Below are positions 8,796 through 48,535 of a stretch of 64,000 bases of DNA, piece by piece. The first letter of the stretch is position 1, and the number at the start of each line of letters is the position of its first letter. The DNA is from an uncultured Dehalococcoidia bacterium (GTDB lineage: Bacteria; Chloroflexota; Dehalococcoidia; Lucifugimonadales; UBA1123). A program made the translations under genes and the position numbers. The stretch spans positions 2,984,773 through 3,048,772 of the forward strand of contig OY282441.1 in NCBI GenBank assembly GCA_958296105.1. Direction: 5' to 3'. Below the pieces are notes generated by a model. It did no database searches and had not been told where the DNA came from. It saw only the letters and a program-made list of their open reading frames with translations.

Positions 8796-9629
8796 CTACT
8801 CCAGCGCCTCCGCTCTTGGGTAAGACCCCAGTATCTTGAACATGGACGCGCGCGCCTCCACGCCAGCCAGCGCGTCCCTGACCACCGCGTCGTCCCTGTG
8901 TCCCTCCACGTCTATCAGAAAGACGTATCTCCCCAGGCTCCTCCTGTCGGGGCGGGACTCTATCTTGATCATGTTCACACTGCGAGACGCAAGCTCCCCC
9001 AGCGTATCGTACAGAATGCCCGGCGCATCCTCCGAGAAATCGAAGCATATAGAGGTTCTGTCGTAGCCCGTGCGCCGCCCGTCCTTGGCAGCCAGCGCCA
9101 CGAAGCGCGTCTGGTTGTTGGATACGTCCTCTATATTGGACTCCACGATGTTGGCATCCAGTATATCCGCAGCCCTCCGACTCGAAATGGCTGCTGCCGG
9201 GTGGCGGCTCTTGCGCATGTCCTCGATCGCGCTCGCCGTGCTGAGAGATGCCACGTGTTCGGCGTCCGGCAGCTGCCTGCTCAGATAGCTTCTGCACTGC
9301 GCTATCGCCTGCGGATGAGAGTACACCACGCGCACGTCCTCGATTCTGGTATCCGGCTGGGCGAGCAGACAGTGGTGAATCGCCACCACCACCTCGCCCT
9401 TGATCTTCAGCTTCGACTGGTGTATCAGCAGATCCACCGTGAACGTCACCGTCCCTTCGAGACTGTTCTCGATTGGGACGATAGCCTCGTCCACCTCCCC
9501 CTCGTCGGCGGATCTGACCACGGCGGGAATGCTGCTGTACGCCACGTGCGCCGCTTCGGGAGCGTAGTCGACCGCCGCCTCCTCGCTGTATGTTCCCGGA
9601 GGGCCGAGGTACGCCAGCCTGATACCCAT
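8796..9629 (-). CDS. pheA: Prephenate dehydratase
   Basis: 277 aa. YLGPPGTYSEEA and PIENSLEGTV PDT-domain motifs plus a C-terminal ACT domain (IESRPDRR). Confidence 0.85.
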   Translation of the reverse strand: MGIRLAYLGPPGTYSEEAAVDYAPEAAHVAYSSIPAVVRSADEGEVDEAIVPIENSLEGTVTFTVDLLIHQSKLKIKGEVVVAIHHCLLAQPDTRIEDVRVVYSHPQAIAQCRSYLSRQLPDAEHVASLSTASAIEDMRKSRHPAAAISSRRAADILDANIVESNIEDVSNNQTRFVALAAKDGRRTGYDRTSICFDFSEDAPGILYDTLGELASRSVNMIKIESRPDRRSLGRYVFLIDVEGHRDDAVVRDALAGVEARASMFKILGSYPRAEALE

Positions 9630-10058
9630 TTAGTGGCCTCCGATCTCCTCAGCGAGCATGTGTCCCAAGTTCTCTTGGAACGCCTCCACGAAAATTCCAG
9701 TCACGTCCAGAGACACGTCCACCCCGAGCCTGTCGAACAGGTCCACATGCTCCGATACGTTGATAGCCGCCATCACCCTCTCGACCTCGAACAGGTGCTT
9801 TGCCATCTGGCAGATCACCAGATTCTCGTCGTCCCTGCGCCCTGTGACGATCAGCGTCTGCGCGCGCGCCGCGCCCGCCCGTCTCAGCACACTGTATTCG
9901 GTGGCGTCTCCATGCACCGCCACACTGCCAAGCTCGTCTTCTACGCTCGCGCAGCGGATGGGGTCGCGGTCTACCACCGTAACCTCCTGCTCGGCTTCCA
10001 GCAGCCACCGCGCGATGGCGGTTCCGACTCTTCCCGCTCCAACTATGATGGCGTACAT
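9630..10058 (-). CDS. TrkA-N (RCK N-terminal) NAD-binding protein
   Basis: MYAIIVGAGRVGTAIARWL Rossmann GxGxxG. 142 aa single-domain protein. Confidence 0.7.
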   Translation of the reverse strand: MYAIIVGAGRVGTAIARWLLEAEQEVTVVDRDPIRCASVEDELGSVAVHGDATEYSVLRRAGAARAQTLIVTGRRDDENLVICQMAKHLFEVERVMAAINVSEHVDLFDRLGVDVSLDVTGIFVEAFQENLGHMLAEEIGGH

Positions 10059-10082
10059 CGCATCCGTGCCACACGCGCCCCG

Positions 10083-10544
10083 TCAGCCCAGCAGACGCTG
10101 CATCACCATGTCCCTCGACAGGTTGACTTGGCTGACAGCCCTCAGCTCGAGTTTCTCGTACAGGTCTCGCTTCACCGGGTCATCCAGCCTGCATACCACC
10201 ACAGGCACCATGAGAATATGATGGGCGATCTGCGCCGACAGCGCGTTGGTCGCGTCGCTGCCTGCCACTGCCACGAATATATCCGCTTCGTGAACATTCG
10301 CCGCGCGCAGGTGAGATTCCAGCGTGATGTCCGCCACTACGGGCTGGACCCTGCCGCTCGCCCCTCGCGCTTCGGGAAGGCGGTCGAAGGCTTCCGCCGC
10401 CCGGTCGAGTATGTGAACGAGGTATCCCTGATCGCCCAGCGCCTTCGCTATCTCGGCCCCCGTCCTTCCGCACCCGCCGACTGCGGCTCTTCCGGATTCG
10501 TTCCTGGCGACGGCATACCCCAAGCGGCTCGACATCTGCACCAC
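10083..10544 (-). CDS. TrkA-N (RCK N-terminal) NAD-binding protein
   Basis: AVGGCGRTGAEIAKAL Rossmann motif. 153 aa, adjacent to other Trk/Ktr genes. Confidence 0.65.
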   Translation of the reverse strand: MVQMSSRLGYAVARNESGRAAVGGCGRTGAEIAKALGDQGYLVHILDRAAEAFDRLPEARGASGRVQPVVADITLESHLRAANVHEADIFVAVAGSDATNALSAQIAHHILMVPVVVCRLDDPVKRDLYEKLELRAVSQVNLSRDMVMQRLLG

Positions 10545-10550
10545 CCTGAT

Positions 10551-11006
10551 TCAGCGGCGGTAGCCGTCGAGACTGCCCATCGCCGGTTTCGGATCGCGGG
10601 AGACGATCACGCGGCAGGGGGCATGTCTCAGCACGTAAGGTATGTAGTCGCCCAGCGAAAACGAGCCATAAGACTCCGCTTCGGTCGTTCCCATCACTAC
10701 GGCGTCCACGTTCTTGTCCACCGCCTCGCGCACCACCACAGCGCCCGCCTTTCTCGCCTGCACCAGATGGGCTTCCGAGCTGCAATTGTAGCTGTTGGCT
10801 ACCTGCTCCATCTTCCTCAGCACTCGTTCGCCCTCTTGGTAGTCCTCCGCCACGTCGGCGTCTATCGGCGAGTGTCGCCCCACCTCGATCACGTAGAGAA
10901 TGTGCAGCAGACTGCGCCTCGATTCGAGCAGCTCGCATCCAAGCCTGACCACATCCTCGTCGCAGTCCGCCCCAGTAACCGGAACCAGTACCGAAGAAGC
11001 CCTCAT
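10551..11006 (-). CDS. Universal stress protein family protein
   Basis: VLVPVTG...LHILYVIEV...VVMGT...G..IPYVLRHAPCRVIV is the Usp pattern. Start at ATG 11006; the ORF is open to 11060. Confidence 0.7.
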   Translation of the reverse strand: MRASSVLVPVTGADCDEDVVRLGCELLESRRSLLHILYVIEVGRHSPIDADVAEDYQEGERVLRKMEQVANSYNCSSEAHLVQARKAGAVVVREAVDKNVDAVVMGTTEAESYGSFSLGDYIPYVLRHAPCRVIVSRDPKPAMGSLDGYRR

Positions 11007-11111
11007 ACTCTTGTGATTCGCGTCTCCTCTCCGGGACGGCCACCTAGCCCAGCCGAACAAATGGACCCTCCCGGCAAACTCTATGCGCGCCTCGAGACCT
11101 TCGAGACCGCC

Positions 11112-11810
11112 CTACGTCGCCGCCGCCGCCAGCGACGGAACCGGCTGTCCTCCCAGCGCGTCCAACTGGTCGAGCATCTCGTCCTTCCCAGCCAAGACCA
11201 GCCAATCGCCGGATCGCAGCCTGTCTTCCGTGTCCGGATTCAGGGTGACGTCCCGCCTGCGCCTGATGGCAAGCACCACCAGGCCGTACTTGTTTCTTGG
11301 ACTCGAAAAGCCCAGCTCTTTGAGGCTCATGCCCACGAACCTGTCCGGCACCCTCAGCTTGCTGATGCCGAAGTTCGGGGTGATCTCCAGATACTCTTCC
11401 ACGTTCGGGTTGAACATGTTGTGAGCCAGACGGTTTCCCATCTCCGCCTCGGCGTGGACGACCTTGTTCACGCCAATCAGGTCCAGCGTGTTCCCGTGCA
11501 GCTCGTTGTGCGCCCGCGAGACCACGTAAGGCACGCCCAGCGTCTTGAGCAAGACGGACGCCATGATGCTGGACACCACATCCGATCCAATAGCCACCAC
11601 CGCCGCGTCATAGTCCGGTATTCCGAGCTCTTTCAGCACCGCGTCGTTCGTACAGTCCCCCGTCAGCGCGTAGGTGGACATTCCCACCATGTTCTGGACG
11701 CGGGTCTCGTCCTTGTCTATCGCCAAGACGTCGTGACCCAGATTGTAGAGCGAGCGAGCGAGGCTCGACCCGAACCTGCCAAGTCCCAATACTGCTATCT
11801 GCTTCTTCAT
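11112..11810 (-). CDS. K+ uptake regulatory subunit KtrA/TrkA (RCK N + C domains)
   Basis: KKQIAVLGLGRFGSSLARSL GxGxxG followed by a TrkA-C-like C-terminal domain. Start taken at ATG 11810; the ORF is open to GTG 11828. Confidence 0.8.
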   Translation of the reverse strand: MKKQIAVLGLGRFGSSLARSLYNLGHDVLAIDKDETRVQNMVGMSTYALTGDCTNDAVLKELGIPDYDAAVVAIGSDVVSSIMASVLLKTLGVPYVVSRAHNELHGNTLDLIGVNKVVHAEAEMGNRLAHNMFNPNVEEYLEITPNFGISKLRVPDRFVGMSLKELGFSSPRNKYGLVVLAIRRRRDVTLNPDTEDRLRSGDWLVLAGKDEMLDQLDALGGQPVPSLAAAAT

Positions 11811-11861
11811 CTCTCTTGCCTCGGACACACTGGGGCCCCGCGCGGGCGCGGGCTGAAGTTC

Positions 11862-13268
11862 TCACCCTATTGTAACTCGTTCTCTTGCAAATCGGTACAT
11901 GTCCGTGCTGCCCTTCTGCGCCATAGCGAGGCCGATGGTGAAAGGCCCCAGGCGTCCAACGAACATCGCCGCCACCAGAATGAGCTGGCCCCACTGCGAC
12001 AGGAACGAGGTGATCCCTGCGCTCAGCCCCACCGTCCCAAATGCGGACACGCTCTCGAAGAGCAGGAAGAGGAAGTCGTGGTCGCCGTCCGAAATGCTGA
12101 GCGCGACCACTATCGTAAAGACTATCCCGGTCGAGATGGCGCCCAGCACCAGCGCCCTCCTCACCTGCTCCGAGGGGATTTCCCGCCCGAACGCCGAGGC
12201 GCTGTCGCGCCCTCGGATGGTGGAGACCACCGCAACGAGTATGACCGCCAGCGTGTTTATCTTGATGCCCCCCGCCACCGACGCCGACGCCCCCCCAATG
12301 AACATCAGACCGGAGATCATGAAGTTGGTCTCATGCTCGGTTTCGCTGTAGTCGAACGTCGTAAAACCCGCTGTCCTTCCGCTGACCGACTCGAAGATCG
12401 AGGTCGTCACCTTCTGGCTGACCGGCATCGGCCCCAGAGTCTGCGGGTTGCGATACTCGAACGTCATGAATATCCCAAAGCCTATCAGTATGGTCGCCGC
12501 CGTGAGGGTCAGCACCAGCTTGGTCGTGAGGCCGAACAGCCTGAACCGTCTGTTCAGCAGGACGTCCATCAGAACGCCGTAGCTGATCGCGCCCATGAAG
12601 ATCATGCCCGCAGTTACGCCGATGACCGTTCCGTCCATCTGGAACGCGCCCATCCCCGCGCTCTCGCCGAAGAATACGAAACCCGCGTTGTTGAACGAAG
12701 AGATCGAGTGAAACAGCGCCAGAGTGAGCGCGCGCTCCGGAGGGTACAAGAACCAGAATCTGACCGCGAGAATGACGAAGCCCAGCAGCTGAACGCCCAC
12801 CGCGAATATCACGATCCCGACCGTCAGGCGCACCAGTCCGCCGTGTCCCATCCCCAGAAGGTCACCGCCGAGGCTCTCTCGAATCAGCAGCCGCTGAGAC
12901 AGCGTCACCCGCTGCCCCGCCACGACCAGCGCGAACGTGGCTAGAGACATGAACCCAAGACCGCCAACGAAGATGATCGCAGCCAGTATGATCTGTCCGC
13001 CGGTAGTCCAGTACGTCGGCGTATCCTGCACGGTCAGCCCCGTCACCGTCACCGCGGAAGTCGCCGTGAACAGCGCCGTCATGAAGGGAGTCGCGCCTTC
13101 GCCGTGATGCGTAAACGGCAGCATCAGCAGCAGGGTTGCAGCCGCTATGAGTCCAGCGAAGACATAGATCACGATGAGCGGAGACGTCAGCGCTCTGGAG
13201 TTGACCTTGCGAGTCTCCACAGTCACCGTGACGGGTCTCAACTCCTCCCGTCTCGGGTGTCTGACCAT
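11862..13268 (-). CDS. TrkH/KtrB family potassium transporter
   Basis: Polytopic membrane protein with TrkH-type pore motifs (SAVTVTGL, SSFNNAGF, SGRTAGF, SAFGTVGLS). Start at ATG 13268 is uncertain; the ORF is open to 13364. Confidence 0.85.
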   Translation of the reverse strand: MVRHPRREELRPVTVTVETRKVNSRALTSPLIVIYVFAGLIAAATLLLMLPFTHHGEGATPFMTALFTATSAVTVTGLTVQDTPTYWTTGGQIILAAIIFVGGLGFMSLATFALVVAGQRVTLSQRLLIRESLGGDLLGMGHGGLVRLTVGIVIFAVGVQLLGFVILAVRFWFLYPPERALTLALFHSISSFNNAGFVFFGESAGMGAFQMDGTVIGVTAGMIFMGAISYGVLMDVLLNRRFRLFGLTTKLVLTLTAATILIGFGIFMTFEYRNPQTLGPMPVSQKVTTSIFESVSGRTAGFTTFDYSETEHETNFMISGLMFIGGASASVAGGIKINTLAVILVAVVSTIRGRDSASAFGREIPSEQVRRALVLGAISTGIVFTIVVALSISDGDHDFLFLLFESVSAFGTVGLSAGITSFLSQWGQLILVAAMFVGRLGPFTIGLAMAQKGSTDMYRFARERVTIG

Positions 13269-13668
13269 GCGGTCGCCGGGTTTGGGTGTCCATGTGGGGC
13301 GCAATGCCAAGTGTTCCGAAGAGACCGGATGCGGCGGCGAGGCCGGGTGCCGTCCGTCCGCCAAACCGTCTCGTATGATGCTCGTCTAGCCAGTAGCCGC
13401 TCGTGCGATTCTAGGATTCGTCCAAGCGTCTTGTCAACGAAAATTGCAATCTTCCAATTCCGCCGACTCTTGGAAAGCATATGCTGCGGCATACCCCAGC
13501 CCATGACTTCGGCGCAGAGAACGCTTGCCCTGCTTGGTGAGACTCAATAGACTACCACCAAACAGGACATTTTCCACAGATGCGGGGAGCAGCTCGCGCA
13601 TCCTTGCGCGTCCACGCTGGCCGGTATGCGCCCGCAGGGGAAACAGCCACGTGATCTAATCTAGGGGA

Positions 13669-14769
13669 ATGACCAGAACGGCAGGCGTCGAGAGTATGGC
13701 GGACATAGACGAAATCGTATTGAGCGTGGTGGACCAATCCCCCATGAGGAAGGGCGGCAAACCCTCCGAGGCGCTGCGCGAGACGGTCACGCTGGCACAG
13801 AGAGCCGAGCGCTTTGGGTACAGCCGATACTGGGTGGCGGAGCATCACAACTCCACGTCGTTCACCGGCACCAGCCCGGAGGTGCTGATAGGCCAGATCG
13901 CGGCGAGGACGGAGCGAATCCGGGTTGGAAGCGGCGGAGTGATGCTGAGCCACTACTCGGCGCTGAAGGTGGCGGAGCAGTTCAGAGTTCTGGACGCATT
14001 CTACCCGGGCCGCATAGACCTTGGGATAGGCAGAGCGCCGGGCAGCGACCGCCTGACCGCCGCCGCCCTCAGCCATCCCAGGCCTCCGGTGGACGTGCTG
14101 CGCGAGTTCCCCCAGATGGTGGGAGACCTGCTGGGGTTTCTCAGCGGCAGCATGGCGGAGGGTCATCCACTGCGCGAGATAAAGGCGCAGCCGGGCGGCG
14201 CGCCCGAAACGGCGCCCGAGGTGTGGCTGCTGGGGTCGTCCGACTACAGCGCGCAGCTGGCGGCGCATCTCGGACTTCCGTTCAGCTTCGCCGATTTCTT
14301 CGGCACCACCAGCGAGTACGGCCCGCGCATGGCAGACCTGTACCGAGACCTGTTCCAGCCGTCCGAGTACCTGTCGGAGCCGAAAGTCAACGTGGGGTTG
14401 CAGGTCATCTGCGCGCCCACTGAGGAGGAGGCAAGGTTCGTGGGCGCGTCTCGCAGCCTCAACAAGGTGGTATCGGCGCTGGGCTTGACCACCGGCGGAC
14501 TTCTGCCGCCGGAGGAGGCAATCGACTGGCCGCTGGACGAGCGAGCGCGGGAGTATATGGCCCAATCGACCCAGAGCTACATCGAGGGCGATCCGAACCA
14601 GGTGCGAGATGGGATCCTTGCATCGGCGGAGCGCTACCAGACTGCGGACATAGGGATCGTGACGAACTGCTACTACTTCGATCACCGTGTGAGATCATAC
14701 GAGCTGGTGGCGAGGGCGATGGGGATGGCTTCCGGCTGCGCGAACCCCTGCGGCATGGGCTACGGATGA
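13669..14769 (+). CDS. LLM-class (luciferase-like) flavin-dependent oxidoreductase
   Basis: 366 aa. LSVVDQSPM...ETVTLAQRAERFGYSRYWVAEHHN...GSGGVMLSHYS is typical of the MsnO8/LLM family. Confidence 0.85.
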   Translation: MTRTAGVESMADIDEIVLSVVDQSPMRKGGKPSEALRETVTLAQRAERFGYSRYWVAEHHNSTSFTGTSPEVLIGQIAARTERIRVGSGGVMLSHYSALKVAEQFRVLDAFYPGRIDLGIGRAPGSDRLTAAALSHPRPPVDVLREFPQMVGDLLGFLSGSMAEGHPLREIKAQPGGAPETAPEVWLLGSSDYSAQLAAHLGLPFSFADFFGTTSEYGPRMADLYRDLFQPSEYLSEPKVNVGLQVICAPTEEEARFVGASRSLNKVVSALGLTTGGLLPPEEAIDWPLDERAREYMAQSTQSYIEGDPNQVRDGILASAERYQTADIGIVTNCYYFDHRVRSYELVARAMGMASGCANPCGMGYG

Positions 14770-14933
14770 ATCACCACAACACAGGTTTGGATAGAGTAAT
14801 CGAAGGCGTGCGTTTTGGCAGCGGCATGGGCTACGGATGAATCACCACAACACAGGTTTGGATAGAGTAATCGAAGGCGTGCGTTTTGGCAGCGGCATGA
14901 GATACGGATGAATCACCACAACTAGGAGCAGCC
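14752..14933. repeat. 71-bp tandem repeat (about 2.5 copies) starting inside the last codons and stop of the LLM gene
   Basis: GGCATGGGCTACGGATGAATCACCACAACACAGG+TTTGGATAGAGTAATCGAAGGCGTGCGTTTTGGCAGC starts at 14752, 14823 and (partial) 14894. The paralogous locus at ~16005-16044 has one copy only and lacks the 37-bp TTTGGATAG... part. Confidence 0.85.
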
Positions 14934-15416
14934 GTGACACGAGACAATCGACCCCAATCGACTCAGAGAGAATCCATCTGGGCCATCGACCCCAAATGGA
15001 TAAACACCTACCTTGCCATCTTCACGTCTTTGAATACAATCAACATAGCCCGAGTTGTCTGGTACGAGACCACACAGGCAGCCCATGCGGGATGGTCTCC
15101 CGCCACTGACGCCATCTTGGAGAGCGTGGGCAAAGGCAGCATCGGCATAGCAGGATTCACGATAACAGTCACCGAAGCAGGGAGGTTTGCAATGGTACTA
15201 GGCGGAGCGCTGCAAGAGGCGCTGAAGAGGAGACGGGAGAGACAGATCGCCGAGGCGAGAGCCGAGGAGAGGGCGGAGACATGGGCAGAGGCATGGGAAG
15301 AGGTCAACGACCGCTGGCGTGCGTGGAACAGCCGTCGCCTAGACGCCCTTGCCAAAGGCGAGCCTTTCGATGAGCCGACGCCGGACATCGACGCGCCACC
15401 CGCAAACGGCCGGTAG
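14934..15416 (+). CDS. Hypothetical membrane/coiled-coil protein, paralog 1 (two predicted TM segments + ARAE/W-rich helical tail)
   Basis: GTG start 6 nt after an AGGAG SD. 160 aa. A near-identical paralog lies at 16045..16596, and the C-terminal module recurs as free-standing ORFs. Confidence 0.55.
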   Translation: MTRDNRPQSTQRESIWAIDPKWINTYLAIFTSLNTINIARVVWYETTQAAHAGWSPATDAILESVGKGSIGIAGFTITVTEAGRFAMVLGGALQEALKRRRERQIAEARAEERAETWAEAWEEVNDRWRAWNSRRLDALAKGEPFDEPTPDIDAPPANGR

Positions 15417-15430
15417 CAGGGAGGTTTGCA

Positions 15431-15691
15431 ATGGTACTAGGCGGAGCGCTGCAAGAGGCGCTGAAGAGGAGACGGGAGAGACAGATCGCCGAGGCGAGAG
15501 CAGAGGGGAGAGCCGAGGCATGGGCAGAGGCGAGGGCCGAGGGGAGAGCAGAGGGGAGAGCAGAGACATGGGCCGAGGTCAACGACCGCTGGCGTGCGTG
15601 GAACAGCCGCCGCCTAGACGCCCTTGCCAAAGGCGAGCCTTTCGATGAGCCGACGCCAGACGACGACGCGCCACCCGCAAACGGCCGGTAG
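15431..15691 (+). CDS. Free-standing C-terminal cassette ORF of the 14934 family (86 aa)
   Basis: Starts MVLGGALQEALKRRRERQIAEARAE and ends EPFDEPTPDDDAPPANGR, the same as the tail of the full-length genes. GGGAGG SD sits 6 nt upstream of the ATG. Confidence 0.4.
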   Translation: MVLGGALQEALKRRRERQIAEARAEGRAEAWAEARAEGRAEGRAETWAEVNDRWRAWNSRRLDALAKGEPFDEPTPDDDAPPANGR

Positions 15692-15745
15692 CCGGGAGGT
15701 TTGCAATGGTACTGGGCGGAGCGCTGCAAGAGGCGCTGAAGCAGA

Positions 15746-16021
15746 GGCGGGCTTCTGCCGCCGGAGGAGGCAATCGACTGGCCGCTGGACGAGCGAGCGC
15801 GGGAGTATATGGCCCAATCGACCCAGAGCTACATCGAGGGCGATCCGAACCAGGTGCGCGATGGGATCCTTGCATCGGCGGAGCGCTACCAGACTGCGGA
15901 CATAGGGATCGTGACGAACTGCTACTACTTCGATCACCGTGTGAGATCATACGAGCTGGTGGCGAGGGCGATGGGGATGGCTTCCGGCGGCGCGAACTCC
16001 TGCGGCATGGAACACGGATGA
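15746..16021 (+). pseudogene. Duplicated 3' fragment of the LLM oxidoreductase gene (copy of 14494..14769)
   Basis: Near-identical DNA encoding ...EAIDWPLDERAREYMAQSTQSYIEGDPNQVRDGILASAERYQTADIGIVTNCYYFDHRVRSYELVARAMGMASGGANSCGMEHG. It has no N-terminal body and is joined at ~15745 to a truncated cassette. Confidence 0.75.
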
Positions 16022-16044
16022 ATCACCACAACACAGGAGCAACC

Positions 16045-16596
16045 GTGACACGAGACAATCGACCCCAATCGACTCAGAGAGAATCCATCTGGGCCATCGA
16101 CCCCAAATGGATAAACACCTACCTTGCCATCTTCACGTCTTTGAATACAATCAACATAGCGCGAGTTGTCTGGTACGAGACCACACAGGCAGCCCATGCG
16201 GGATGGTCTCCCGCCACTGACGCCATCTTGGAGAGCGTGGGCAAAGGCAGCATAGGCATAGCAGGATTCACGATAACAGTCACCGAAGCAGGGAGGTTTG
16301 CAATGGTACTAGGCGGAGCGCTGCAAGAGGCGCTCAAGAGGAGACGTGAGAGACAGATCGCCGAGGCGAGAGCTGAGGCGAGGGCCGAGGCATGGGAAGA
16401 GGCGAGAGCAGAGGCATGGGAAGAGGCGAGAGCAGAGGCATGGGAAGAGGCGAGAGCAGAGGCATGGGAAGAGGCGAGAGCAGAGGTCGACCGCTGGCGG
16501 GAGTGGAACAGCCGTCGCCTAGACGCCCTTGCCAAAGGCGAGCCTTTCGATGAGCCGACGCCAGACATCGACGCGCCGCCCGCAAACGGCCGGTAG
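16045..16596 (+). CDS. Hypothetical membrane/coiled-coil protein, paralog 2 (183 aa)
   Basis: GTG start after a CAGGAGC SD. The N-terminal ~95 aa are identical to paralog 1. The tail carries 4 tandem EARAEAWE (24-bp) repeats. Confidence 0.55.
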   Translation: MTRDNRPQSTQRESIWAIDPKWINTYLAIFTSLNTINIARVVWYETTQAAHAGWSPATDAILESVGKGSIGIAGFTITVTEAGRFAMVLGGALQEALKRRRERQIAEARAEARAEAWEEARAEAWEEARAEAWEEARAEAWEEARAEVDRWREWNSRRLDALAKGEPFDEPTPDIDAPPANGR

Positions 16597-16610
16597 CCGG
16601 TAGGTTTGCA

Positions 16611-16799
16611 ATGGTACTAGGCGGAGCGCTGCAAGAGGCGCTGAAGAGGAGACGTGAGAGACAGATCGCCGAGGCGAGAGCCGAGGTCAACGACCGCTGG
16701 CGTGCGTGGAACAGCCGCCGCCTCGCCGCCCTTGCCAAAGGCGAGCCTTTCGATGAGCCGACGCCAGACGACGACGCGCCGCCCGCAAACGGCCAGTAG
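16611..16799 (+). CDS. Free-standing C-terminal cassette ORF of the 14934 family (62 aa, no internal repeat)
   Basis: MVLGGALQEALKRRRERQIAEARAEVNDRWRAWNSRRL...PPANGQ. The upstream SD is degraded to GGTAGG. Confidence 0.35.
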   Translation: MVLGGALQEALKRRRERQIAEARAEVNDRWRAWNSRRLAALAKGEPFDEPTPDDDAPPANGQ

Positions 16800-16926: not shown

Positions 16927-17619
16927 ATGTACCCACCAATCCACGGACCGTATAACTGCAATTCGAGGGTGTTTCCCACAAACTGCAAGAGTTGCCGGCA
17001 GTCCGTCTTCTACTTTTTCTGCGAACACGGCAGCAAGGTGTTTTTCGACCGCCTCGGCCCACCGTGGCCCGAACACCAATGCGTCGGGAGCGCATATAGA
17101 TCGTCGCCTCCCACTCCTCCGAGGCCCTCTGGCCGCAGTGCATGGCCGCAGCTGCGAGGGGTTGAGTTTAGCGTCCGGCCCGCTAACTACGACCTGCTGC
17201 CTGGGATGACACGCGGCTCGGAACAGGCAATCCGGAGAGTCCGAGAAGCGCGTGTGCGCCCGCGTGAAACGGTCAGGATGGATCCGCTAGGATCACTCGC
17301 CGAAACGCTGGCTGGGCGAGTAACCGATGTCCACACAGTGGATGTGGCAGACAGGCTCGGTCTCGAATCGAGTTCGGTCGGTGCCACTCTGGCGAGCCAA
17401 CGCTTCCCAGGGCTGCGAGCAGTACAGATTACGATTCTCGTGGACGAAATCCACATTGACCCAAGCGCCGAGGACCTGATGAGCTACACGTTCTGGATAC
17501 AGGCATCGAGAGATGCCGAGTCTGTCGTGAGGGATGACATCATCTACGTCGAAATCGAGCCTGTGGAGATGCTCGGAGCAGAAGCCCGGTGGGTCGCAAG
17601 ACGCATGGAGGTCATGTAG
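16927..17619 (+). CDS. Hypothetical protein with N-terminal Cys/His zinc-ribbon-like region
   Basis: 230 aa. GGGAGAG SD lies 5 nt before the ATG. The motif is CNSRVFPTNCKSCRQSVFYFFCEHGSKVFFDRLGPPWPEHQC. No family recognised. Confidence 0.5.
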   Translation: MYPPIHGPYNCNSRVFPTNCKSCRQSVFYFFCEHGSKVFFDRLGPPWPEHQCVGSAYRSSPPTPPRPSGRSAWPQLRGVEFSVRPANYDLLPGMTRGSEQAIRRVREARVRPRETVRMDPLGSLAETLAGRVTDVHTVDVADRLGLESSSVGATLASQRFPGLRAVQITILVDEIHIDPSAEDLMSYTFWIQASRDAESVVRDDIIYVEIEPVEMLGAEARWVARRMEVM

Positions 17620-19962: not shown

Positions 19963-20562
19963 TCAGACGCTCTGAGACAAGAAGTCGCGCAGCCTTCTGA
20001 AATGCGCGCAGTTTCGGCTGACTCTGGACTCGTCGACCAGTTCGAGCAGCTTCGCGCCGTCACTTACTTTGTCGTATCTGCGTTTTGCGCCGCTTGATCG
20101 CAAGCCCCGCTTGATCGAGTCGGTTAGCCGAGCGGGCGGAATCGACTCGGCGTTTTGAGGGTTGGGCAGCTGCTTGACGTCGAATCTGTGTCCAAAGCGT
20201 TCGATCAGAGCCTGCGGATCGGCTATGAACCACGATTCCATAGCCTGAACCATGAAGTTGAGCTGGCCATCATCGCATGTTGCGTTCGCGTCCCAAAAGT
20301 CGCGTGAGCGAAGAGTCCTTATGAAACCCGCAGTGCTTGGCACAGGCCCTTCGGAGTCTATCAGCAGTATGTTGAGATCGGACGGATGCAGTCGGCATGA
20401 CCTGATAAAGTCCTTGACAGTCTCGACGTTGGACCCGCCAGAGATCAGCTTGAATCCAATCCTCTTCTGGCGCGCCCGCTCCGCATGGGATTTCAGCAAG
20501 GCGTGGAAACCGGGTCTGAGATTGGCGTCCCCCTCGAAATGGATGGTTACTTGGGTTACCAA
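19963..20562 (-). CDS. DUF4276-like protein (possible divergent TOPRIM-type nuclease)
   Basis: 199 aa from a TTG start that overlaps the upstream ATPase stop (CGTTGGTAA). Motifs FEGD, ILLIDSEG and a C-terminal CAHFRRLRDFL. Family assignment is from memory of DUF4276 proteins that pair with AAA ATPases and needs HMM confirmation. Confidence 0.65.
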   Translation of the reverse strand: MVTQVTIHFEGDANLRPGFHALLKSHAERARQKRIGFKLISGGSNVETVKDFIRSCRLHPSDLNILLIDSEGPVPSTAGFIRTLRSRDFWDANATCDDGQLNFMVQAMESWFIADPQALIERFGHRFDVKQLPNPQNAESIPPARLTDSIKRGLRSSGAKRRYDKVSDGAKLLELVDESRVSRNCAHFRRLRDFLSQSV

Positions 20563-21779
20563 CGGTTGCCGCCAATTACTCCCTTCTTCCAAAGCTCGGC
20601 CAGCCGGTAGTCTTCCAGCCACTCGTTTAGCTCATCCTCTGGAAGGCGTTTCAACTGAGTGTCGCCGTCGAAACCCCTTTCACATACCATGATGACGTCA
20701 GGATCGACAGTGAACTGATCGACCAGATCCGGCGAATGTGTGGTTACGATCACTTGAGTACGCTCCGACGCGCCTCTGAGCAGATCTGCCAGCAGCGGCA
20801 TGGCGTTGGGGTGGAGCGCAAGCTCCGGTTCTTCGATGCAGACAAGCTCGGGCGGCTGCGGATGGCACAGAACGGTCAGCAGAGCTATGAACCTCAGCGT
20901 ACCATCGGACAGTCTGGTTGCGGGTATCGAGCTGGACATCCCCGATTCGTTGACTGCCAGCTGTATTGCGCCTCCGAACACGCGCGAGCGCAGACTGTAG
21001 TATGTCTCGTAGAAGCGGTTGAGATACTCGTCCATCGGTTTTTCGAGTCCACGAGTCTGGAGGTCGTTGACCATCAGGGCCAGGTTGCTGAAATCCTCTT
21101 CGAGGAAGCCAATGGGTCCGTCTGTTGCCTGTGGAAGGCGGGCAGGGCTGTTTCGCCCCACGTTCCAATTCCGGTAGAGCCGTATCGAGCCGAATTTGCG
21201 AGAGGTCTGCGTCAGCACGGGAAAGTTGACCGGGTCGCGGATCTCGCTCAGCACCGAGCGCGTGGGGGCGAAGTTTTCGGGGGTCAGCCTTGTGACAATC
21301 TCTCCATCGGAATCTTCGCTCTCGCCGTATGACCTGCGGGGCGAGACTCGACCATATCCGTTCTCCACGCTGAAGTAGTAGAACGGAAGCCGTTGGTAAT
21401 CGTAGTAGGGACGGATGTTCTCGAGCTTTTCCGCGGCGACTTCCATGCGCTCGTTGTTCTCTGCGAGCTGAAGATTGTAGATCAGCCGTCGGTCGGCCTC
21501 TTGCGCGCCTGTTGGATTGTCGAGCGTCGCCGTGACCTCTGCCACTTGGGATACTGCGCCCGGAGCAAGGTCTCCCTTCCACAGCCAGTCGGCGATTGGG
21601 CCATTGCGCCGAAAGAAATCTGCTAGGTCTGCCGGTACTGCCTGAAGCAGCGCGAACGTCTCGATCAGGTTGGACTTGCCGGATGCGTTGGGGCCGATCA
21701 GCACATTGAGAGGGCCAAGTTCTATCTTGACGTCCTTGAATGAGAGCATGTTCTTTATATCGAGCGAATGGAACAGCAT
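20556..21779 (-). CDS. ABC/SMC-type AAA ATPase (AAA_15/AAA_21-like)
   Basis: 407 aa. Walker A GPNASGKSN near the N-terminus, signature-like LSDGTLR, Walker B LVCIEEPELALHP, H-loop VTTHSP. Confidence 0.8.
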   Translation of the reverse strand: MLFHSLDIKNMLSFKDVKIELGPLNVLIGPNASGKSNLIETFALLQAVPADLADFFRRNGPIADWLWKGDLAPGAVSQVAEVTATLDNPTGAQEADRRLIYNLQLAENNERMEVAAEKLENIRPYYDYQRLPFYYFSVENGYGRVSPRRSYGESEDSDGEIVTRLTPENFAPTRSVLSEIRDPVNFPVLTQTSRKFGSIRLYRNWNVGRNSPARLPQATDGPIGFLEEDFSNLALMVNDLQTRGLEKPMDEYLNRFYETYYSLRSRVFGGAIQLAVNESGMSSSIPATRLSDGTLRFIALLTVLCHPQPPELVCIEEPELALHPNAMPLLADLLRGASERTQVIVTTHSPDLVDQFTVDPDVIMVCERGFDGDTQLKRLPEDELNEWLEDYRLAELWKKGVIGGNRW

Positions 21780-48460: not shown

Positions 48461-48535
48461 GCCCCCGTAGCTCAGTGGATAGAGCGCTGGCCTCCGGAGC
48501 CAGGCGCGTGGGTTCGAGTCCCGCCGGGGGTACCA
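48461..48535 (+). tRNA. tRNA-Arg (anticodon CCG), CCA encoded
   Basis: Cloverleaf by hand: acceptor GCCCCCG/CGGGGGT, D-arm GCTC-AGTGGATA-GAGC, anticodon arm CTGGC-CTCCGGA-GCCAG, T-arm GTGGG-TTCGAGT-CCCGC, then ACCA. Confidence 0.9.

Follow-up and report, generated by a model that had tools for sequence, protein, structure and literature searches.

Behind a gene of the MsnO8-type luciferase-like monooxygenase (LLM) class, the 64,000-nucleotide stretch of Dehalococcoidia DNA analysed here (the window) probably carries a copy-number-variable array of an uncharacterised Dehalococcoidia small-gene family, in which the long gene encodes both a membrane-anchored protein and an anchor-less one and the short genes are stand-alone copies of the latter. 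A wider reading, in which an undescribed Dehalococcoidia system makes anchored and anchor-less protein through an internal start and stand-alone cistron copies, with a set of spacers reshuffled by recombination, is put forward tentatively.

Architecture of the array and its gene family

The locus is ordered as the LLM gene, a 71-bp repeat in 2.4 copies, long gene A, short gene A1, a truncated short gene, an orphan 3' fragment of the LLM gene, long gene B, and short gene B1 (Table 1).

Table 1 Features of the array (positions are those of the window).
Feature	Position	Strand	Description and basis
Intact luciferase-like monooxygenase gene	13669–14769	+	MsnO8 family, 366 aa; Pfam Bac_luciferase, NCBIfam TIGR03558
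71-bp tandem repeat	14750–14922	+	2.4 copies; TRF score 332, 98% matches
Long gene A	14934–15416	+	160 aa, GTG start, AGGAG 5 nt upstream; ORF list, family alignment, HMM, hydropathy
Putative internal start, long gene A	15180–15194	+	Ribosome-binding site GGGAGG (15180–15185) and ATG (15192–15194, Met87); sequence, family-wide conservation
Short gene A1	15431–15691	+	86 aa, C-terminal module only; GGGAGG and ATG 14 nt after gene A stop
Truncated short gene	15706–15745	+	SD, ATG and 13–14 codons; begins MVLGGALQEALKQR..., severed at duplication junction
Novel junction of 1252-bp tandem duplication	15741–15750		Links codon ~13 of the short gene with LLM codon 276; three-way comparison
Orphan LLM 3' fragment	15746–16021	+	92 codons including stop; 97.6% identical to 14494–14769
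Long gene B	16045–16596	+	183 aa; spacer is a 24-nt repeat in 4.7 copies at 16375–16486
Putative internal start, long gene B	16291–16305	+	GGGAGG (16291–16296) and ATG (16303–16305); sequence
Short gene B1	16611–16799	+	62 aa, shortest spacer; SD weakened to GGTAGG; right end of repeated region

The product of long gene A, which matches the family HMM with an E-value of 1.6e-75, combines a pair of hydrophobic helices with a charged spacer and, at its C-terminus, a conserved W..WN.RRLDALAKGEPFDEPTPD motif. By this division, the first part would form a hairpin of two hydrophobic helices acting as a membrane anchor with N-in/C-in topology, the second a charged helical spacer of low complexity that varies in length through slippage of a 12/24-nt repeat, and the third a C-terminal peptide that is almost invariant in the family (W..WN.RR..A.AKGEPFDEP(P/T)P). 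Hydropathy plots show two peaks of 1.6–2.1 in distant family members and weak peaks (1.0 and 1.24) in the window's own proteins. An AF2 model from a 23-sequence alignment is poor overall (pLDDT 59.5, pTM 0.29), with a single long helix over residues 70–141 and a pLDDT of 80–89 in the region of the C-terminal motif. We infer membrane location and topology, like the internal start discussed below, from the sequences. The first 110 codons of the two long genes differ by 5 synonymous and 0 non-synonymous changes, indicating that both genes are constrained, and the pN/pS of the C-terminal module in long genes is 0.13.

The family falls into 1118 clusters at 50% identity, nearly all of them from Dehalococcoidia. 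We compared 80 loci (L006–L085) from species-representative genomes; together with the window, L002, and L005, these make up a set of 83 regions. A long gene is followed by one or more short genes at 30 of the 80 loci and stands without a short gene at 34. Neither long, short, nor neighbouring proteins gave a significant profile match to Pfam, NCBIfam, PHROGs, or PADLOC, the only matches being sub-threshold and driven by low complexity (OrfB_IS605, DUF6033, TolA, and FliH). A profile search of the PDB returned no match to a solved structure, the family libraries and the PDB yielded no homologue of known function and no partner for the C-terminal motif, and a full-text literature search with the motif strings found no paper. 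Clustering of the ORFs within 5 kb in the 83 regions yielded only generic metabolic families as conserved neighbours, each at 13 loci or fewer (SDR, ABC ATPase, MFS, and beta-propeller proteins). A search of the whole window with Rfam found only a tRNA-Arg at 48461, and no terminator was detected in 13.4–17.8 kb. A large family that no database names offers a handle on an abundant uncharacterised component of Dehalococcoidia cells.

Class II holins are small proteins that combine a pair of hydrophobic helices, a strongly charged C-terminal tail, and dual-start motifs. The long gene has the same layout with two putative translation starts, but initiation at the second would cost the protein its entire anchor, where holins lose two residues, and the arrays contain as many as 7 copies of the genes. 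The neighbours are metabolic genes, and a phage or lysis context is lacking; a phage origin was rejected, as no relative was found among 2.9 million viral contigs and PHROGs gave no match.

A probable internal translation start and the short genes

In the long genes, the C-terminal module begins at one conserved ATG/GTG/TTG codon with GGAGG ahead of it. We examined this site in 54 non-redundant long genes sharing less than 70% identity with each other, with some counts made on 52 of them. A single alignment column is ATG, GTG, or TTG in 85% of these genes and no other column reaches 60%. Upstream of this column, the duplex energy with the anti-Shine-Dalgarno (anti-SD) sequence averages −8.7 to −9.2 kcal/mol, compared with −3.0 (sd 1.65) across all columns, and the SD signal forms a single sharp peak instead of running generally along the gene. 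Energies of −8 kcal/mol or lower precede 67% of the conserved start codons and 2.1% of the 8328 internal start-capable codons that served as background, an enrichment of about 30-fold. Of 52 genes, 42 have an exact GGAGG, which falls in codon phases 0, 1, and 2 in 12, 14, and 16 cases, respectively, and encodes 14 different peptides; it is thus the nucleotide sequence, rather than the amino-acid sequence, that is conserved. Because the motif is found in each of the three phases, we infer an internal translation start, from which the anchor-less C-terminal module would also be translated separately. The long genes carry this strong internal SD and start codon where the second helix ends.

SD motifs are generally depleted within bacterial coding regions (PMC5100845), and internal starts yielding functional shorter proteins are documented (bioRxiv 10.1101/520783, 10.1101/648071). 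The cases identified by retapamulin ribosome profiling (bioRxiv 10.1101/520783) and SctQ/SctQ-C of type III secretion (bioRxiv 10.1101/648071), in which a C-terminal isoform acts together with the full-length protein, share with the present family a conserved in-frame start with a strong SD, and the predicted short product is the C-terminal module of the long one. The sequences are unrelated to those of the present family, in which, moreover, one or more genes further downstream repeat the internal cistron in several lineages, and the two forms would differ by a membrane anchor. One nucleotide motif in three reading phases at deep divergence is unusually clean comparative evidence for an internal start, and it lends itself to direct tests of how bacteria encode longer and shorter forms of a protein.

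The short genes would be stand-alone copies of this internal cistron. Each has its own SD and an ATG 14 nt past the preceding stop, followed by an intact ORF; in A1 the spacer consists of a 12/24-nt repeat at 15488–15578. The preliminary description had listed them as downstream cassettes, which are indeed present, although that label undersells them: they are conserved short genes under purifying selection and not leftovers. Their pN/pS is 0.14, based on sequence pairs that are few and non-independent, and the signal could in part have been imported from long genes by gene conversion.

The array may instead be neutral debris of unequal crossing-over, with non-functional short ORFs and a GGAGG and ATG arising from amino-acid or composition constraint. 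The LLM fragment and the truncated short gene are plainly remnants of this kind, and the partial copies of L002–L005, whose breakpoints vary (HMM positions 44 or 66), look like plain recombination debris. The coding strand is also purine-rich (fraction 0.60 vs 0.48 for the window), which raises the background of GAGG-like sequences, and many loci do without short genes, as noted above. This reading is nonetheless unlikely in view of the low pN/pS of the short genes and of their behaviour at high divergence. Nucleotide identity between long and short genes ranges from undetectable to 97%, and short genes without a DNA-level match to their long neighbour still hold an intact ORF and the motif, which is kept in 50 of 59 short ORFs. 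The three codon phases, the variety of encoded peptides, and the sharp, enriched SD peak argue further against a by-product of protein or base composition. In genome annotation, the 60–90-aa ORFs behind long genes should therefore stay as genes.

Tandem duplication and possible exchange between units

Self-BLAST of the locus gave two main head-to-tail repeats, with similarity far above chance: 14494–14785 matches 15746–16037 (97.6% over 292 nt, offset 1252, E-value 7e-145) and 14892–15292 matches 16002–16403 (96.3% over 402 nt, offset 1110). The C-terminal module gives extra self-matches at offsets 239–275, 872, 1108, and 1183. The segment 14494–15745 thus recurs starting at 15746, as two diverged copies with a single novel junction, and its left end is formed by the last 92 codons of the LLM gene (14494–14769). 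The junction reads ...GCGCTGAAGCAGAGGCGGG followed by CTTCTGCCGCC..., where the intact LLM gene has ...ACCGGCGGA followed by CTTCTGCCGCC... The two sides have a short GGCGG/CGG stretch in common, so that the GGCGG microhomology proposed earlier is present, although the match is imperfect. The ORF from the start of the truncated short gene reads on into the LLM fragment.

The duplication was further compared with an independently assembled relative, L001 (ENA ERZ19489085 contig_1, ~98% nucleotide identity in the flanks). The 30-nt junction sequence is identical there (9624–9653), the order of parts is the same, and the short gene is truncated at the same point; the duplication is therefore older than the split of the two strains. 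The second copy of L001 retains two short genes and one 71-bp unit, as predicted by a simple tandem duplication of an LLM-long-short-short segment. We consider it strongly supported that this was the ancestral arrangement and that it underwent one illegitimate tandem duplication of ~1.25 kb. The breaks lie in LLM codon 276 on the left and ~13 codons into the second short gene on the right, joined through microhomology of a few bases, which explains the orphan LLM 3' fragment that now sits inside the array. Subsequently, homologous recombination between units and repeat slippage probably altered spacer lengths, deleted one 71-bp unit and one short gene from the second copy of the window, homogenised the 71-bp units, and shifted spacer variants between positions.

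The preliminary description had claimed a genuine, non-trivial tandem segmental duplication whose second copy contains an orphan 3' piece of the LLM gene together with another small gene; the self-BLAST repeats, the ORFs, and the shared junction bear this out. What it missed is that the duplication is one episode within a chronically recombining array of variable copy number. Arrays of 4–7 units stand behind an orthologous LLM gene in L002–L006, and the outer flanks of L002–L005 are unlike those of the window. Similar histories are seen in tandem duplications that were joined illegitimately at microhomology and later reshaped by unequal crossing-over and gene conversion, which share with this locus a head-to-tail repeat, one novel junction, a truncated passenger gene, and later remodelling of copy or repeat number between strains; here, however, the unit already contained an older, family-typical long and short repeat that is apparently selected and not accidental. 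The duplication per se is ordinary genome dynamics, and its value lies in the family that it exposes.

The window and L001 differ in where their spacer variants sit, the spacer of long gene B resembling that of the first long gene of L001, and the spacer of short gene A1 that of the second. Such a pattern raises the question of programmed cassette variation, in which short copies serve as donors and gene conversion swaps their spacers into the expressed long gene. Neisseria pilE/pilS and the orphan C-terminal modules of CDI/Rhs systems consist of a full gene followed by partial 3' copies with conserved arms and a variable middle. The array has the same layout, with signs of a possible exchange between positions: a variable spacer lies between conserved arms (~75 nt and ~110 nt) that are 90–97% identical among all units, spacer length differs in every unit of an array, and a short-gene spacer of the window resembles a long-gene spacer of L001 and vice versa. 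In contrast to those systems, the cassettes here have start signals and protein constraint, spacer length varies rather than an epitope or toxin domain, and immunity genes are absent. We regard a pilE/pilS-type programme as improbable, and somewhat more so than neutral debris, since the copies are not silent (own SD, ATG, and complete ORF, with the constraint given above), no recombinase or other dedicated machinery is conserved beside the arrays, the predicted cytoplasmic location of the spacer leaves no obvious selective agent, and ordinary RecA-dependent exchange accounts for the same pattern. A target of a diversity-generating element (DGR, VR/TR) was also rejected: 15 of 41 mismatches fall at A, every type of substitution is represented, and indels of repeat units make up most of the differences. 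No reverse transcriptase was present among the called neighbours in L001.

The monooxygenase gene and the assembly

The product of the intact LLM gene matches Pfam Bac_luciferase over residues 23–321 (127.8 bits, E-value 7e-37) and TIGR03558 over profile positions 1–324 of 325, with 360.3 bits where the cut-off is 166.95. Being above the cut-off and full-length, it is assigned by profile to the MsnO8 family. The orphan fragment has lost the N-terminal 275 codons, hence most of the Pfam domain, and holds no complete catalytic TIM barrel. The tails of the two copies, GCANPCGMGYG and GGANSCGMEHG, differ as first reported, by 2 synonymous and 4 non-synonymous changes, all 4 of the latter within the last 10 codons. 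The fragment is a passenger pseudogene piece, probably without a role. The 70-aa LLM remnant stands in the public protein collection as a predicted protein on the same 3.18-Mb contig, and should be labelled a fragment in annotation.

The 71-bp unit is made up of the final 20 nt of the LLM gene and 51 nt of spacer, and is known only from the window locus and L001, where it occurs three times. A structured RNA or mobile element was rejected for it, as it folds worse than shuffled sequences (z +2.7) and is restricted to these two loci.

The small proteins could also be coupled to the monooxygenase, as its substrates or partners in a RiPP-like precursor array, with the fragment retained for that reason. 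A co-oriented LLM gene does lie directly upstream in the window, L001, L002, L004, and L005, despite differing outer flanks; it is split into two ORFs in L003 and lies 496 nt upstream in L006, and the LLM proteins of L002, L005, and L006 are 85–87% identical to that of the window. Across the 83 regions, however, any LLM gene within 5 kb is found in only 26, at varied distance and orientation, and those beside L008, L009, and L011 are non-orthologous (27–31% identity); an orthologous LLM is limited to the closest clade, and elsewhere LLMs are unrelated or absent. Dehalococcoidia lineages such as SAR202 are very rich in LLM paralogues (PMC5395668, PMC6946804), and chance adjacency is therefore expected. 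With a fragment that lacks most of the catalytic domain and gathers non-synonymous changes, and with an enzyme-precursor adjacency that is not conserved, coupling was rejected as a family feature and is very improbable for this locus.

Least credible is a collapsed or chimeric assembly, to which repeat-rich regions are prone, because the independent ENA assembly with its identical junction and order of parts speaks strongly against it and the copies diverge by substitutions, spacer length, and the 71-bp unit.

A putative length-variable tether

Returning to the array of anchored and anchor-less proteins, we suggest as a best guess that it supplies a tether of variable length, anchored in the membrane, along with soluble partners. 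It would present anchored and soluble versions of one C-terminal binding peptide on spacers of varied length, the soluble forms pairing or competing with the anchored ones for a putative cytoplasmic partner.

TolA domain II, Lpp, and ER/K single alpha-helices are helical spacers that set length. Like them, the long gene product is predicted to join an anchor, a long charged Ala/Glu/Arg-rich helix, and a terminal binding element. The match to TolA is driven by composition (E-value 0.016, 14 bits against a cut-off of 213) and the proteins are not homologous; the present protein differs from such spacers in its two-helix anchor, its much smaller size, and the several lengths that stand side by side. 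If the wider reading is true, the array would be a genetically adjustable set of tethers or spacers for a putative cytoplasmic partner that binds the invariant WN.RR..A.AKGEPFDEPPP.

Structure and age of the duplication

The preliminary description proposed that segment 14494-15745 is repeated head-to-tail from 15746, and a self-comparison of 14.3-17.0 kb, the check suggested there, recovered this repeat. The copies match over 14494-14785 and 15746-16037 (97.6% identity, 292 nt, offset 1252) and over 14892-15292 and 16002-16403 (96.3%, 402 nt, offset 1110), and a shorter module recurs four and a half times with offsets of 239-275 inside each copy. The order of parts can be described in terms of long genes, which encode an N-terminal hydrophobic part, a spacer, and a C-terminal module, and short genes, which encode the C-terminal module alone. 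The ORFs agree with the earlier assignment to copy 2 of an orphan 3' fragment of the luciferase-like monooxygenase (LLM) gene and a second full small gene, and the microhomology noted at the junction is real: about codon 13 of a short gene is fused to LLM codon 276 via a few shared bases (GGCGG/CGG). Each short unit opens with (G/C)GGAGGTTTGCA-ATG, exactly 14 nt past the preceding stop codon, the start motif of B1 being weaker (GGTAGG), and both long genes contain an internal GGGAGGTTTGCA-ATG at Met87.

Features of the duplicated locus and of the candidate anti-phage system downstream
Feature	Position in window	Description
LLM gene	13669-14769	MsnO8 family
71-bp tandem repeat, x2.4	14750-14922	Last 20 nt of the LLM gene open each unit
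Long gene A	14934-15416	ORF, 160 aa
Short gene A1	15431-15691	ORF, 86 aa
Truncated short gene	15706-15745	
Duplication junction	about 15745	
LLM 3' fragment	15746-16021	
Long gene B	16045-16596	ORF, 183 aa
Short gene B1	16611-16799	ORF, 62 aa
ATPase	within 19963-21779 (-)	407 aa; PADLOC HEC-01A, E 1.6e-132
ORF overlapping the ATPase	within 19963-21779 (-)	219 aa; PADLOC HEC-01B, E 8.8e-43

L001, an ENA metagenome contig of a close relative whose flanks are about 98% identical to those of the window, has its parts in the same order, includes the orphan LLM fragment, and matches the window at all 30 nt of the junction sequence. This comparison, also suggested beforehand, upholds the view that the locus is not a trivial assembly duplication and excludes an assembly artefact; the duplication is older than the strain. 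Copy 2 of L001 holds two short genes and one 71-bp unit, exactly as expected if an ancestral LLM-long-short-short segment was simply duplicated in tandem, and copy 2 of the window has lost one short gene and the 71-bp unit since the duplication. The first two 71-bp units of the window are now identical to each other. Spacer variants occupy different positions in the two contigs, the spacer of the window's long gene B being similar to that of L001 long 1 and the spacer of short gene A1 to that of L001 long 2, indicating that inter-unit recombination was ongoing after the duplication. The duplication mechanism itself is ordinary.

The LLM gene was assigned to the MsnO8 family with 360 bits (cut-off 167). 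Its fragment differs from the intact gene by 2 synonymous and 4 non-synonymous changes, the latter all in the non-conserved tail, and is a passenger, since most of the enzyme domain is missing. A 70-aa ORF in this remnant (15809-16021, +) is listed publicly as predicted protein P0212, yet it is only a gene fragment. A continuous 296-aa ORF (15706-16596, +) runs from the ATG of the truncated short gene through the remnant in another frame and ends in frame with long gene B; its L001 counterpart is broken by a 71-bp unit. The exact 183-aa product of gene B was not found in the protein collection, so annotators probably chose a different start.

The small-protein family

Searches of Pfam, NCBIfam, PHROGs, PADLOC, and PDB gave no significant match for the small protein. 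A profile search of 1.84 billion representative proteins retrieved 1118 clusters at E ≤ 1e-3, of which 312 reach E ≤ 1e-10; lengths among the top 150 matches run from 63 to 279 aa (most about 140-200 aa, a minority below 100 aa), and no extra domains were found in 14 family matches inspected, the longest ones included. Species-representative genomes provided 80 loci, nearly all from Dehalococcoidia MAGs, the exceptions being two loci in a single Poribacteria MAG and three in MAGs of other Chloroflexota, and 2.9 million viral contigs contained no relatives.

In the family alignment, the N-terminal part is conserved and holds two hydrophobic segments, the second of which ends in an invariant Met-Val. 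A spacer follows, built of lineage-specific repeats of 4 or 8 residues (AEAR, EGR, EVAS, and others) and anywhere between a few and about 100 residues long, and the C-terminus, W..WN.RRLDALAKGEPFDEPPPD, is near-invariant. Distant members display two clear transmembrane-grade hydropathy peaks (1.6-2.1), the window proteins show weaker peaks in the same places, and the charge distribution suggests a putative N-in/C-in topology. The AF2 model is poor overall (pLDDT 59.5), includes a single long helix (residues 70-141), and is confident in the C-terminal motif region. The family-wide motif PFDEPPPD includes a PPP run, a known ribosome-stalling sequence for which EF-P is required; the window's clade has PFDEPTPD (15383-15391 and 16563-16571).

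Of the 80 loci, 30 have one or two ORFs with only the C-terminal module directly behind a long gene, and the terminal motif is kept in 50 of 59 such ORFs. At the DNA level, short genes range from 97% identical to their long neighbour to not detectably similar; in the latter cases (for example L018, L034, L037, and L074), the proteins are nevertheless clearly related and intact, indicating that short genes have long been kept and are not merely fresh debris. The association of long and short genes is a family trait. Constraint is also visible at the codon level: across their first 110 codons, genes A and B are separated by 5 synonymous and 0 non-synonymous changes, and among the nine units in the window and in L001, pN/pS over the conserved parts of the C-terminal module is 0.14 (short) and 0.13 (long), from few, non-independent pairs.

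In the closest clade, arrays of varied composition lie downstream of the orthologous LLM gene: six long copies and one partial (L002), four long and two partial (L003), three long and two partial (L004), five long-type copies, one without its 5' end (L005), and four long-type copies, one internally deleted (L006). Within an array, the N-terminal domains are near-identical and the spacer length differs unit by unit. The LLMs upstream of these arrays are 85-87% identical to that of the window, whereas the small proteins share only 52-58% identity with the window's, indicating that the family evolves quickly. Coupling of the array to the LLM is unlikely: the two are neighbours only in this clade, LLMs are absent or non-orthologous elsewhere, and LLM paralogues are plentiful in related lineages (PMC5395668, PMC6946804). 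In some relatives (P0062, P0141, and P0197), two short modules are fused within one ORF, which is another recombination outcome of these arrays.

A predicted internal translation start

In order to score each codon position, we aligned 54 long genes with less than 70% mutual identity. The sole column with a start-capable codon in at least 60% of the sequences is that of Met87 of gene A (85% ATG, GTG, or TTG). The predicted pairing between the 16S anti-Shine-Dalgarno (anti-SD) sequence and the 14 nt ahead of the codon peaks sharply at this column (mean -8.7 to -9.2 kcal/mol), compared with -3.0 kcal/mol (sd 1.65) over all columns, and 42 of 52 long genes carry an exact GGAGG upstream. This motif occurs in all three codon phases (12, 14, and 16 cases in phases 0, 1, and 2) and encodes 14 different peptides, among them GG, GR, WR, xEV, and xEG, which argues for selection on nucleotides rather than protein. 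A pairing of -8 kcal/mol or lower was reached by 67% of the internal sites. The share was only 2.1% among 8328 start-capable codons inside long ORFs at these loci, and only 9% among the best N-terminal start candidates of the same long genes. SD-like motifs are normally depleted within coding regions (PMC5100845), and functional internal starts have been documented in other systems (bioRxiv 10.1101/520783; bioRxiv 10.1101/648071). We infer that the long genes putatively also yield a C-terminal module that lacks the anchor; the stand-alone short genes would be extra copies of this predicted internal cistron.

At their annotated N-terminal starts, the long genes carry weak ribosome-binding sites (mean -4.4 versus -8.7 kcal/mol internally; 54 genes, L002-L085). 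If the predicted internal start is used, the short product could be the major one. A sigma-70-like site, TTGCCA-16-TACAAT (10/12, a consensus match only), lies within both long genes (15013-15040 and 16124-16151, +), ~150 nt upstream of the internal start; this putative promoter may drive a transcript for the short isoform alone.

Proposed function and alternative explanations

The long and short genes of this recombining array are constrained, and it is mainly the length of the spacer that sets them apart. Judging from the sequences, the long form would be a membrane hairpin that displays the conserved C-terminal peptide on a helical spacer in the cytoplasm, the short forms would pair or compete with it for some partner, and the arrays would supply multiple spacer lengths. 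No conserved neighbouring gene was found as a candidate partner.

Variation from silent cassettes fits in part: it matches the conserved arms and swapped spacers, but the cassettes are under constraint and bear their own start signals, and no dedicated machinery is conserved beside the arrays. Pure debris likewise explains the LLM remnant, the short gene cut off at the junction, and the irregularly broken copies of L002-L005, but neither the intact short genes nor the internal SD. A diversity-generating retroelement (DGR) is excluded by the mismatch spectrum, and a holin would lack a phage context here. Tandem arrays and long/short isoform genes are themselves known kinds; what is notable is an unnamed family with a conserved predicted internal start, stand-alone short genes, and a set of spacer lengths.

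Neighbouring genes

About 3 kb downstream of the array lies a two-gene candidate anti-phage system of the HEC-01 type, and the L001 counterpart of its HEC-01B ORF matches Pfam DUF4276. In two more distant relatives (L003, 8726-14813; L004, 8980-14753), an N6/N4 methyltransferase-HNH fusion gene and a gene for a 1133-aa nSTAND-type NTPase lie behind the array. Together, these genes suggest that the arrays sit at variable, defence-rich spots. Right after the window's array, a 230-aa ORF (16927-17619, +) with a Cys-rich N-terminus (C..C......C..C) has no match in Pfam, NCBIfam, PHROGs, or PADLOC; its L001 counterpart is a shorter called gene (137 aa). Upstream, a 1348-aa ORF (8898-12944, +) lies antisense to the TrkH gene (11862-13364, -); such open frames are typical of DNA with 63% GC, and this one is most likely spurious.
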